Source: a phage. Taken from it: DNA of 64,000 bases. Position numbers and translations under genes: made by a program. The stretch is taken from the sequence record MZ956761.1; one strand, written 5' to 3'. The first letter of the stretch is position 1. Each line of letters starts with the position of its first letter. The notes below the pieces were generated by a model. It saw only the letters and a program-made list of their open reading frames with translations, ran no database searches and had not been told where the DNA came from. Below are positions 43,502 through 51,564 of the stretch, piece after piece.

Positions 43502-43502
<1 letters not shown>
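43245..43502 (-). CDS. 67: Prohead core protein with poly-acidic C-terminal tail
   Basis: 85 aa; C-terminal D/E run [38 protein letters not shown]. Confidence 0.75.
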
Positions 43503-45154
<1,652 letters not shown>

Positions 45155-45159
45155 TCATT

Positions 45160-45651
45160 TTATTCCCAATAATCGAGAGCAAGAGTTACTTCAAATGTTT
45201 GGATTTCATTGTTTGAATCCCAATCTAATTGAAGTTCACCCACGTTAGTAGGCCACAGGCCTTTAATTTCGACTTCTTTTGTTACAGTTTTAGCGTCACG
45301 AGCATATTGGCGAACAACAGCGCTCTTTTTATATTCTGCTGGTTTTCCACCAGTAATTTCGTTCCCTTGCCCAGCAGCAATGCTTTGCCAATCAACAAAC
45401 TTCTGGCGAGCATCATGTGCCTCATCGTTCATTACTGTAACAGTCCAGTCATCGAATGTACGATCGCCTGCTACGTTAATTTTACGGTTCATGAATCCGA
45501 CTGGAATTTTTTCTACAATACCAGCTGGTAAAGCAGTGGCTTTACATTGAAACGTAAAATTTTGTCCAAGATAAGAAATTTCTACTTGGAATAAGTTAGG
45601 TCGAGCAAAATCACCAGATTCAAACGCTCGTGTTACATCATCTACAAACAT
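45160..45651 (-). CDS. 19: Tail tube protein
   Basis: 163 aa MFVDDVTRAFESGDFARPNLFQVEISYLG...; length as T4 gp19. Confidence 0.9.
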   Translation of the reverse strand: MFVDDVTRAFESGDFARPNLFQVEISYLGQNFTFQCKATALPAGIVEKIPVGFMNRKINVAGDRTFDDWTVTVMNDEAHDARQKFVDWQSIAAGQGNEITGGKPAEYKKSAVVRQYARDAKTVTKEVEIKGLWPTNVGELQLDWDSNNEIQTFEVTLALDYWE

Positions 45652-45665
45652 ATTAGCCTCTGTAG

Positions 45666-45673
45666 TATTTATA
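45666..45673 (-). promoter_or_regulatory. Late promoter TATAAATA (minus strand), proximal to gene 19
   Basis: TATTTATA on the plus strand about 15 nt upstream of gene 19 ATG. Confidence 0.5.
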
Positions 45674-45724
45674 TCCCTATGTTTAACCTAGGGCATATAG
45701 AATTAAAGAATTAAGGATATAGTG

Positions 45725-45732
45725 TATTTATA
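45725..45732 (-). promoter_or_regulatory. Late promoter TATAAATA (minus strand), distal, just downstream of the HNH gene hairpin
   Basis: Second exact TATTTATA on the plus strand in the HNH-19 intergenic region. Confidence 0.5.
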
Positions 45733-45734
45733 TG

Positions 45735-45752
45735 GCCTGCCGAAACAGGCCT
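45735..45752 (-). terminator. Hairpin after HNH endonuclease gene
   Basis: GGCCTG-tttcgg-CAGGCC on the minus strand immediately after the HNH stop. Confidence 0.45.
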
Positions 45753-45758
45753 TTAGAA

Positions 45759-46376
45759 TCATTCTAGTAAATCCCAAAGATCTACACTATTTCTTTTTGA
45801 TTTTTCTCGGTTAGATTCCCAAGTGATTATTTCTAAATTATTAATACCACCAATTATTTTAGCAGGAATTAAATTATCAAAACCGTATTTGATAGATACC
45901 TTATGATCAAGTTGGTAAGCACCTTTTGTACCGCACACTCCTATTTTATCAGCATTTGGCCATTTTGACCAAATTTTCTTATGCTTACGAGTTTCTTTAT
46001 ATACCAATGAAATATATTCACGCATTTCAGATTTATTTGGGTTCCATCTTGGATGATTTACGCCATGCATACATTCTACTGTTTTTCCTTTATTCGCGGA
46101 ACCATATGAATTATTGCGCATTTTATCTTTATGACGGCAATCACGACAAATATCAGTGTTTCTTCCAATGCGTTGGTTATATTCAATTCCACATTTATCG
46201 CAACGGCATTTTACATACGCGGTACTACCTTTAATGTCTTCAACTTTAACATCAATTTCATAATACCTAAATCCATGTTTAACCGCTCCAAGAGGTGTTA
46301 ATTTATAACCCTTTGATTGATAATGTTTAAAATTTGATGGTACAATTTTCACTTTAACAAACTTAGAAATAATCAC
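45759..46376 (-). CDS. HNH endonuclease-like protein (possible freestanding homing endonuclease) inserted between genes 18 and 19
   Basis: C-terminal YQLDHKVSIKYGF...GGINNLEIITWESNREKS fits an HNH motif; central CxxC...CxxC cluster; start set at GTG 46376 with GAGGAA RBS just after the gene 18 hairpin (alternative ATG at 46409 lies inside the hairpin). Confidence 0.6.
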   Translation of the reverse strand: MIISKFVKVKIVPSNFKHYQSKGYKLTPLGAVKHGFRYYEIDVKVEDIKGSTAYVKCRCDKCGIEYNQRIGRNTDICRDCRHKDKMRNNSYGSANKGKTVECMHGVNHPRWNPNKSEMREYISLVYKETRKHKKIWSKWPNADKIGVCGTKGAYQLDHKVSIKYGFDNLIPAKIIGGINNLEIITWESNREKSKRNSVDLWDLLE

Positions 46377-46393
46377 TTGTTTCCTCGAGAATA

Positions 46394-46407
46394 GGGGCCG
46401 AAGCCCC
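46394..46407 (-). terminator. Hairpin immediately after gene 18 stop
   Basis: GGGGC-TTCG-GCCCC on the minus strand 8 nt after the gene 18 TAA. Confidence 0.5.
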
Positions 46408-46415
46408 ATAATCAA

Positions 46416-48395
46416 TTAACCTGCAAGACCAGTTAACTCATCGAAATCTGCACCAGTAGCAGTTGCGACGAAATTCAAAGTAATATAATTTATACTGCGC
46501 GCCGGTTGGATGTAGAATGTTGCAACAAACTCATTTCTATCAATTACTGACGGAGTGTTATTTGTTGTATCGCAAACTACACGATATTCATAAATTCCAC
46601 CGAGAGCTTTAATTCCCTGCAAGTACTGGGAAGTTTCTGTGCGGAATGATGAACGAGTAAACGCGTTGTTTAATTCGAACAAACGATATTTTGAACTACG
46701 TCCAATATTCGTTTTCAACATATTAAACAGACGACGAACGTTAATACGATCAAATGGAGAAGGAACAGAAGTAGCTGTTTTATCACCATACAATACGTAA
46801 CCATCACCACCTGTACCAGTTACTGGGTTGATAGCTTCTTGGTATAAACGATCGCGCTGCGCCTGGCGAGTTTCAATAGCAAGTTTAATAACGTTCAAAA
46901 TTTGGCCACGATTATAACCAGCTGGGGACATCCAAGTCTGAGAAACGTTATCTGTTCTCGCGCATAAACCAGCAATATCAGCTGCTAATGGAACCCAACG
47001 ATTCACATCATTATATTTGTCATACTGATACTTGTAGTTACCATCAATTGCTGCGTAGGTTGAACTGATATTAAAGTTATTATCAGTGTATGAACCTGCT
47101 GCAGTTCTCCAATTGACTAAGTTATCAACAGCACGAGTTACAGGAATTCCAACTACAGTTTCACGCGGTGGTGAGCACAGTACTAAGCAATCTTGGCGAG
47201 CATCCCCAATTGAAACGACGTGTTTTTGGACAGTAGATGCTGTTTCTAAAGATTCACCGGCACAAGAACCCGCAATAAACAACTGAACATCAACAGATTC
47301 ACGGTCAGCAAAGAAGTCCCAAGCTTCCATCAAATCTCCTGCTGTCACTTCAGCATTTGATGATAAACCACCAGACAGAGTTAAAATTCCAGAGAAGCCT
47401 TCTGGCCAGTTTTGTGCAGTTGCGAAAATATATTCTGAACCACCTTTTGCGAAAAAGTCATCAATATAGATGTTACTATCGTAAATATCTTTTTCACCAC
47501 GCTTTGTTGAAAGAACAACGCTTTGAACAATAGCATCATTGCGACGAACTATAATAGCGTATTGTGAATCAGTTTGTGGTCCATATCCAAACACTGCTTT
47601 GGCAGTAGATGCGCGTGTGCCGCCGCCTGGATAAATTGGAAGTAATGCAGAAGCACCTTTTGCGTAGTCAGCTTTAGATACGATTTCAATTTCGATTTTA
47701 TCGCCCAACTCGCCTGGATAAAGAGCTACTACTCCTGGAATTCCATATTTTTCGAGATTTGCTTGAAAGTCAACAGCTGTCATGGCAGCTTCGGCATTTT
47801 CAATTTCAGCTAATAAAATACCAGAATCGGTAATAATTTTTCCAAGAGTTATTACTGCAGCTAAACCAGAGGAAGACGAAGAAATTTCCGCGGTCCAGTT
47901 AGAACCTAATTCTGGATATTCGCCTACTTCTTTCGCTTTAGCGATAATTTTTGCGGTAGGAATATTAATTTTCTTAATTTTTCCATCAGCATCTACTTCG
48001 GTAACTTTACATTCTGTTTCAACATCTTCTGAAACATACTTAACCGTGATTTTATCTCCAACCGCGTAGTTACTACCTGGGGTAGAAATAGTGTATTCAA
48101 TATTACCGGCAATCGGAGATGAGTTTTTAGCGGTATCTCTATCGACAACACGCACAACTCGCAAATCATTTCCGTATTGTAAGAAATTCATTGCAGACAT
48201 AAAATAGTCAGCAGTTTCAGCTGTAGGTTGACCAAAAGTATTAACTAAATCTACTTCATTCGTAACCTGTTTAATTTGAAAAGCAGGACCCCACTGGAAT
48301 TTACCGGCCAAAGCTGCTGTACCAGTAGAGTTATTAACCACGGTGCTTTGAACCGTAGTTTCTTTGAGCTCAATGCCCGGAGATAATAAAGTCAT
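46416..48395 (-). CDS. 18: Contractile tail sheath protein
   Basis: 659 aa MTLLSPGIELKETTVQSTVV...; length as T4 gp18. Confidence 0.95.
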   Translation of the reverse strand: MTLLSPGIELKETTVQSTVVNNSTGTAALAGKFQWGPAFQIKQVTNEVDLVNTFGQPTAETADYFMSAMNFLQYGNDLRVVRVVDRDTAKNSSPIAGNIEYTISTPGSNYAVGDKITVKYVSEDVETECKVTEVDADGKIKKINIPTAKIIAKAKEVGEYPELGSNWTAEISSSSSGLAAVITLGKIITDSGILLAEIENAEAAMTAVDFQANLEKYGIPGVVALYPGELGDKIEIEIVSKADYAKGASALLPIYPGGGTRASTAKAVFGYGPQTDSQYAIIVRRNDAIVQSVVLSTKRGEKDIYDSNIYIDDFFAKGGSEYIFATAQNWPEGFSGILTLSGGLSSNAEVTAGDLMEAWDFFADRESVDVQLFIAGSCAGESLETASTVQKHVVSIGDARQDCLVLCSPPRETVVGIPVTRAVDNLVNWRTAAGSYTDNNFNISSTYAAIDGNYKYQYDKYNDVNRWVPLAADIAGLCARTDNVSQTWMSPAGYNRGQILNVIKLAIETRQAQRDRLYQEAINPVTGTGGDGYVLYGDKTATSVPSPFDRINVRRLFNMLKTNIGRSSKYRLFELNNAFTRSSFRTETSQYLQGIKALGGIYEYRVVCDTTNNTPSVIDRNEFVATFYIQPARSINYITLNFVATATGADFDELTGLAG

Positions 48396-48423: not shown

Positions 48424-51564
<3,141 letters not shown>

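Follow-up and report, generated by a model that had tools for sequence, protein, structure and literature searches.

The window analysed here is a stretch of 64,000 nucleotides (nt) of phage DNA (sequence record MZ956761.1), in which an additional open reading frame (ORF) lies between the genes for the tail sheath (gene 18) and the tail tube (gene 19). Over the 1.8 kb around this ORF, the sequence agrees at 100% identity with that of the Tequatrovirus Escherichia phage ADUt (OQ466432.1). The position of the ORF between genes 18 and 19, as given in a first-pass annotation made from the sequence alone, was confirmed, with an 18-19 spacer (45652-46415) of 764 nt as against 116 nt in T4. Alignment of the window with T4 and T6, and then with 13 further Tequatrovirus loci, reduced the difference from T4 to a single block, in which 656 nt stand in place of the 8 nt TACGGTGC found behind the stop codon of gene 18 in the empty T4 spacer (Table 1). 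As judged from these comparisons and those described below, this insert is probably a promoter-less cassette encoding a free-standing homing endonuclease.

Read along the coding strand, the block opens with 8 nt that separate the stop codon of gene 18 from a UUCG tetraloop hairpin, followed by 7 nt, the Shine-Dalgarno (SD) sequence GAGGAA, 6 nt, a GTG codon opening a frame of 205 codons, and a TGA stop codon (45761-45759). Its boundaries were identical in all 14 aligned loci, 7 occupied and 7 empty, and downstream of the block the spacer equals that of T4 base for base. The first-pass annotation had credited the insert with a 3' hairpin of its own and with a second copy of the gene 19 late promoter, apparently acquired by duplication on insertion. 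However, the downstream hairpin and both TATAAATA late-promoter boxes already occur in the insert-free T4 spacer, so that nothing was duplicated by insertion and promoter duplication was rejected. The cassette instead came to lie upstream of intact native signals.

Table 1. Features of the gene 17-20 region and of the 18-19 insert (window positions; MFE, minimum free energy)
Feature	Position	Strand	Basis or remark
Gene 17	48427-50259	minus	
Gene 18 (sheath)	46416-48395	minus	
Gene 18 variation cluster, last 30 codons	46467-46500 (-85 to -52 from stop)	minus	17 sites; all codon changes but one synonymous
Insert, 656 nt relative to T4	46415..45760	minus	Alignment; replaces 8 nt TACGGTGC
Leader hairpin with UUCG tetraloop, GGGGC (46407-46403)-UUCG-GCCCC (46398-46394)	46407-46394	minus	Sequence; MFE and centroid folds
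Shine-Dalgarno sequence GAGGAA	46386-46381	minus	Six nt before GTG
ORF, 205 codons plus stop; putative free-standing homing endonuclease (T6 ORF19.1 family, PHROG 5104)	45759..46376	minus	GTG start
Zinc-ribbon/treble-clef-like cluster C59-x2-C62...C77-x2-C80 (CxxC-x14-CxxC)	46137..46202	minus	N-terminal domain, residues ~1-90 (46107-46376)
HNH-like beta-beta-alpha core motif, D157-H158...N180-L181...N189..K192	45801..45908	minus	
Native 18-19 hairpin GGCCUGU-UUCG-GCAGGCC	45751-45734	minus	Outside insert; identical in insert-free T4
Late-promoter box TATAAATA no. 1	45732-45725	minus	Native to spacer; present in insert-free T4
Late-promoter box TATAAATA no. 2, upstream of gene 19	45673-45666	minus	Native to spacer; present in insert-free T4
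Gene 19 (tube)	45160-45651	minus	
Gene 20 (portal)	43502-45154	minus	

Given that a scan of IMG/VR with gp19 yielded only 15 loci, occupied and empty junctions were counted in the GenBank phage collection, with flanks at least 95% identical. The unique middle of the window allele, here called RB3-type, was found in 48 records at 96-100% identity, and that of a second, T6-type allele in 70 records. A 200-nt probe spanning the empty T4 junction matched 654 records, 502 of them at 95% identity or more and 121 with partial coverage only, giving about 384 empty T4-type junctions. Roughly three in four Tequatrovirus records thus lack the cassette, and all empty sites carry one exact 8-nt filler. Empty-site alleles among relatives, on which the homing interpretation of the first-pass annotation turned, are therefore abundant and precisely bounded. 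A 32-kb record named Staphylococcus phage SAJK-IND (MG010123.1) is 99.5% identical to this coliphage region, and the T6-type allele also turned up in two 'Pseudomonas' records; all of these are probably mislabelled or contaminated.

The T6-type allele is represented by T6 'ORF19.1', deposited in 1994, which occupies the same 18-19 site, belongs to PHROG 5104 and has the same leader of hairpin, SD and GTG. Along the spacer, the two alleles are 100% identical over nt 1-60, only 33-57% identical over nt 61-439 and again 73-100% identical over nt 440-764, indicating that they share the leader and the C-terminal nuclease domain while the zinc-ribbon half, with its linker (residues ~8-133, counted like all residues here from the GTG start), has been exchanged. 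Overall, the T6-type protein is only about 50% (51%) identical to the window protein, in a setting where gp18 and gp19 are ~99% identical.

A similar discordance was seen in other genera. Immediately behind the sheath gene, homologues were found in Klebsiella phage Mexia, Acinetobacter phage Mokit and Serratia phage CBH8, and likewise in Aeromonas phage AS-zj, Vibrio phage VmeM-32 and Sinorhizobium phage phiM12; their identities to the window protein (65, 47, 38% and lower) do not track those of gp18 and gp19, the Mexia protein being 65% identical although its gp19 is only 67% identical. A second genus is polymorphic in IMG/VR, with one occupied locus (L018) and two empty ones (L017 and L019) in flanks that are 94-96% identical. 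Combined with the ~50%-identical alleles in 99%-identical flanks and with a guanine-plus-cytosine (GC) content of 31.7% in the ORF as against 40% in the flanking genes 18 and 19, these values indicate that the history of the ORF is uncoupled from that of its neighbours. In Vibrio phage vB_VmeM-32 (L034, 1874-2885), similarity to the homologue falls into two pieces and the annotated coding sequence ends ~190 nt before the similarity does, which may mark a frameshifted, decaying copy.

The ORF, announced by the first-pass annotation as 205-218 codons long, ends at 45759 and indeed yields 205 amino acids (aa) from GTG and 218 aa from an upstream TTG. It is not a chance feature, as homologues of its product were found at E-values as low as 1e-137 and the product matches PHROG 5104, a family of unknown function, with E=7.4e-91; this match aligns residues 14-217 of the 218-aa reading with positions 1-209 of the 228-position profile. 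The homologues fell into 37 clusters in a single-sequence search and 164 clusters in a profile search, and 6138 representatives were recovered at E<=0.001 from a library of 1.84 billion proteins. No Pfam domain was recorded on any homologue listed in the two cluster searches that report such domains, and PADLOC returned no match for the ORF protein. The ORF is under purifying selection, the pairwise ratio of nonsynonymous to synonymous substitution rates (dN/dS) within each allele class being 0.04-0.14. Its annotation across records is inconsistent: the ADUt record and some others call it a homing or HNH endonuclease ('homing endonuclease' in ADUt), several RB phage records (RB5, RB6, RB7, RB9, RB10) leave it without annotation, and other labels (NC_042039, NC_054907 and PQ657790 among the records) are 'hypothetical', 'gp67', 'putative head morphogenesis protein' and 'type II restriction endonuclease'.

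Both sequence motifs named in the first-pass annotation are present, the cysteine cluster as C59-x2-C62...C77-x2-C80 and the LDHK motif as L156-D-H-K...N180-L...N189-R-E-K. In the N-terminal half, C59, C62 and C77 are invariant across 34 homologues, sub-threshold matches were obtained to DUF4379, treble-clef and Zn-ribbon profiles, and an AlphaFold2 model places strands at 54-58 and 65-69 and a helix at 78-86. Searches of PDB sequences with phmmer and with the full-length profile returned zinc-finger and chance matches only.

In the C-terminal half, conservation across 260 diverse homologues is nearly complete for D157, H158 and N180 (259 of 260 each), N189 (257) and K192 (254), and L181 is also among the near-invariant residues (254-259 of 260). 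In an AlphaFold model derived from the family alignment (predicted local distance difference test score, pLDDT, 85.5), the D-H pair ends strand 154-158, N180 immediately precedes strand 181-185, and helix 186-191 contains N189, a predicted layout corresponding to the beta-beta-alpha-metal site of the HNH 'HNN' variant. In the catalytic pattern of the HNH superfamily, an Asp-His pair ends strand 1, a structural Asn precedes strand 2 and a metal-binding Asn or His sits in the helix. When 48 diverse C-domains were compared with Pfam, 14 of the 26 sub-threshold matches to member families fell to HNH_4 (7 domains), HNH (4), HNH_5, GmrSD_C and GH-E (1 each), with a best E of 0.0045. A C-domain profile search of PDB sequences aligned the family D-H with the D-H of a Cas9 HNH domain; its matches were otherwise mostly spurious, to leucine-rich repeats through an IGxLxNLxxL pattern. 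Structural neighbours among the viral models of BFVD include proteins named HNH or homing endonuclease. Taken together, sequence conservation and the model point to a probable divergent HNH (His-Me finger) nuclease domain. The first-pass reading of an HNH-like C-terminal motif therefore stands for the conserved D-H/N/N/K residues and their predicted layout, and fails at the level of curated HNH profiles, none of which is reached at threshold.

The same C-domain is found elsewhere fused to DUF7487 repeats. In three relatives (P0197, P0244 and P0258), tandem 'KYGVEY.MQS.E.KEK' modules, which correspond to Pfam DUF7487, lie between a zinc finger and the nuclease domain, and DUF7487 could be an array of DNA-binding repeats used by homing endonucleases. 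A C-domain protein of a jumbo Klebsiella phage is encoded after nrdA, a classic homing hot spot.

The first-pass annotation had further proposed a translational-control architecture, on the grounds that the first ATG lies in the hairpin following gene 18 and that a GTG with a strong ribosome-binding site comes just downstream. Both observations hold. The G of the upstream ATG is the first base of the hairpin stem, and the candidate starts are TTG at 46415 (218 aa), ATG at 46409 (216 aa) and GTG at 46376 (205 aa). The GTG is the likely start, because the PHROG 5104 match begins exactly at this codon, MI(I/T) opens 27 of 34 homologues at its position and most homologues read MII(S/T)K there, the 1994 T6 record remarks 'likely begin by GTG' and several other submitters annotate it, and the upstream ATG reads AAG in 2 of 7 occupied loci. 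The SD and GTG context, GAGGAA(A/T)CAAGTG, is kept in all 7 occupied Tequatrovirus loci, as is the hairpin.

The proposed control itself found no support. The SD lies outside the stable stem, base pairing that extends as far as the SD and GTG is weak (MFE frequency 0.02), and the fold of the 91-nt leader region is no more stable than those of shuffled sequences (z=0.23), indicating that the leader is not a device that sequesters the ribosome-binding site in the manner of I-TevI or mobE. A role as an intrinsic terminator was rejected because the hairpin has no T-run, and a promoter-box scan found no TATAAATA in or beside it. Since strong hairpins also come after gene 18 in other genera with a homologue, the Tequatrovirus leader hairpin may be the donor's post-gene-18 hairpin brought in with the cassette. 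In Acinetobacter phage Mokit (L006, 2450-2500) and Serratia phage CBH8 (L007, 2401-2500), a TATAAATA box is located between gene 18 and the homologue, in Mokit within the loop of the post-gene-18 hairpin; this placement would fit dedicated late expression of the homologue in these phages.

We also compared the 900 nt upstream of the insert in the 14 aligned loci, which contain 119 variable sites, none of them between -197 and -94 from the stop codon. The variation cluster in the last 30 codons of gene 18 resolves into three haplotypes, one shared by 4 of 4 RB3-type loci, another by 3 of 3 T6-type loci and the third, that of T4, by 5 of 7 empty loci. This makes 46467-46500 a candidate recognition or co-conversion region. 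The RB3-linked haplotype, however, occurs in ~118 records and the insert in only 48, so that its frequency in insert-free phages deprives it of value as proof of co-conversion or target immunity; this haplotype could represent a tract of co-conversion, a resistant form of the target or no more than linked background. Both occupied-type haplotypes read AGTATAAATTAT where T4 reads AGCATTAACTAC, and three of the synonymous changes between them convert CATTAACT of T4 into TATAAATT (46494-46487, minus strand, inside gene 18). This element matches the T4 late-promoter box at 7 of 8 positions, 111 nt upstream of the GTG, and could give the cassette a late transcript of its own.

With respect to function, the cassette shows the features by which free-standing homing endonuclease genes are recognised in comparisons, namely presence/absence polymorphism, fidelity to one site, divergence uncoupled from the flanks and modularity. 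The homing signature claimed in the first-pass annotation is therefore supported by empty sites, precise boundaries, uncoupled divergence, purifying selection and an HNH-like domain; the promoter duplication and the translational control proposed with it are not supported. In this interpretation, the cassette combines the stable UUCG hairpin with a ribosome-binding site and a GTG-initiated gene for a protein of 205 aa, in which an N-terminal zinc ribbon, presumed to recognise DNA, is joined to the divergent HNH domain. Its place is immediately behind the stop codon of gene 18, ahead of the native hairpin and of the two late promoters of gene 19, so that gene 19 expression would be left untouched. 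Transcription of the ORF would be late, by 3' extension of the message for gene 18, with probably weak translation. In a mixed infection, the enzyme would nick or cut an allele lacking the insert, close to where gene 18 ends, after which recombinational repair would copy the cassette and flanking markers into the recipient. Across the T4 superfamily, the family has kept its address immediately downstream of the tail-sheath gene, and within Tequatrovirus two alleles with a common nuclease domain and different N-terminal domains would compete for one site.

Several results weigh against this interpretation. The ORF protein has no HNH match at E<=1 in Pfam or NCBIfam, a Foldseek search of the model against PDB gave no match, and each individual fold score is weak. 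The literature search retrieved no report of cleavage, target site or homing for any family member, no published function for T6 ORF19.1, and no study either of that ORF or of any endonuclease encoded in the 18-19 interval. The RB3-linked gene 18 haplotype is, as described above, more widespread than the insert, and the position shared across subfamilies might also reflect an old resident gene that is often lost.

A more far-reaching version of the homing interpretation is possible, and we hold it only tentatively. The ORF may belong to a distinct, uncurated lineage of HNH-like homing endonucleases, one branch of which has specialised on the 3' end of the sheath gene throughout the T4 superfamily; within one genus, the swapped zinc ribbons of alleles competing for one site and the gene 18 haplotypes linked to them would reflect specificity switching by domain exchange and an arms race between endonuclease and target. 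Thousands of relatives occur in metagenomes, and the nuclease domain is without a Pfam model; the metagenomic contexts of the DUF7487-fused relatives were uninformative.

Less probable is a domesticated HNH-type nuclease that is kept for its benefit to the phage and not because it homes, for example to exclude or degrade co-infecting relatives or satellites or to process DNA. Strong purifying selection and the sheath-gene address conserved across subfamilies would agree with such a role, and homing-endonuclease-like genes can, according to the literature, be domesticated, a case that bioinformatics alone cannot separate from homing (PMC10448857). By contrast, absence from about three quarters of Tequatrovirus records indicates that the gene is dispensable, and the two alternative alleles at one precise site and a divergence uncoupled from the flanks are as expected of a selfish element. 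Domestication and homing are not mutually exclusive.

Still less likely is an ancestral resident gene, a 'gene 19.1' inherited vertically and deleted repeatedly, so that the present distribution would reflect loss rather than invasion. The post-gene-18 position is shared in Tevenvirinae, Twarogvirinae, Emmerichvirinae and Emdodecavirus, in keeping with such a history. However, protein identity does not follow flank identity, half-identical alleles lie in nearly identical flanks, one and the same 8-nt filler stands at every empty site, and the GC content is 8 points below that of the flanks. Finally, the protein would have a non-nuclease role in the late tail operon, either in assembly or as a regulator that binds nucleic acid through its zinc finger, and the 'DH...N...N' pattern would be coincidental. 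This reading could draw on the unmatched curated HNH models, the zinc-finger proteins that make up the strongest sequence-profile matches and the location between two tail genes in a late transcript, and is nonetheless very improbable in view of D-H, N, N and K residues near-invariant in 260 diverse homologues, structural neighbours that are nucleases, a C-domain that recurs with other DNA-binding modules and beside nrdA, and dispensability in most relatives.

The homing endonuclease cassette favoured here resembles several known systems in part. T4 carries the free-standing HNH endonucleases mobA-E, of which MobE has been shown to be active (PMC2790892, PMC2988022). Like the window cassette, these genes are intergenic beside an essential gene, promoter-less and read from an upstream host promoter, sporadic among T-even phages and endowed with an HNH-type catalytic motif. 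The mob-type identity for which the first-pass annotation had suggested a search was, however, rejected: the family profile aligned to T4 MobE, the one Mob protein compared, with an hhalign probability of 0.1, and the window protein has its zinc ribbon first and its nuclease domain last, the reverse of the domain order reported for Mob proteins (PMC10448857). The window ORF also lies in a late structural operon, unlike the mob genes among nucleotide-metabolism genes.

The closest parallel to the leader is seg43(25) of Aeromonas phage 25, where a very stable hairpin of unknown regulatory role lies just upstream of the ribosome-binding site without including it (PMC2988022), as in the window cassette. 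seg43(25) differs in encoding a GIY-YIG enzyme within a DNA-replication gene cluster, and the window hairpin, unlike that of seg43(25), is at the same time the first structure to follow the stop codon of gene 18. I-TevI, segB and Aeh1 mobE, whose ribosome-binding sites are sequestered by hairpins (PMC2988022), likewise are late endonuclease genes on polycistronic messages with a hairpin near the translation start. Control of this type pairs the ribosome-binding site within a stable stem and relies on a late promoter so placed that the 5' arm is missing from late transcripts. By contrast, in the window leader the SD is free of the stable stem and the hairpin contains no late promoter.

The Hef or EDxHD (Vsr-like) homing endonucleases, such as I-Bth0305I (PMC3239194), also include free-standing enzymes of T4-like phages that, like the window ORF, look uncharacterised, and 'Hef-like' genes have been annotated beside tail tube genes, as in LIMEstone1 (PMC3296691). 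Profile and structure searches with the ORF protein, in which no Hef sequence was compared directly, found no similarity to this lineage, from which the window ORF is set apart by fold and residue description, its adjacent D-H, N, N and K and its core of two strands plus a helix fitting HNH instead. The ORF product is best described as an uncharacterised relative of an already known kind of homing endonuclease, whose gene has been in databases since 1994.

Two observations were made on the portal gene downstream of gene 19. The mechanically called gene 20 ORF of the window encodes 550 aa as against 524 aa annotated from a downstream ATG in ADUt and T4, and the longer reading is probably just an upstream in-frame ATG. 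In Escherichia phage Ptacy1496 (locus L004, 3789-5353), gene 20 is annotated as two coding sequences of 318 nt and 1239 nt, which suggests a frameshift or an error in sequencing, or perhaps a further interruption immediately beyond the tube gene.

In T-even phages, free-standing homing endonucleases influence both the exclusion of markers and the mosaicism of genomes. Those with experimental characterisation in the papers cited above concern nucleotide-metabolism and replication genes. A consistent name and GTG start would improve the annotation of the ORF, and the RB3-type and T6-type alleles represent a ready natural pair for studying the exchange of DNA-recognition domains. If active, the enzyme would add a small nuclease domain without a curated model, and, acting at the junction of sheath and tube genes, it would turn the tail module into a boundary at which recombination is driven.
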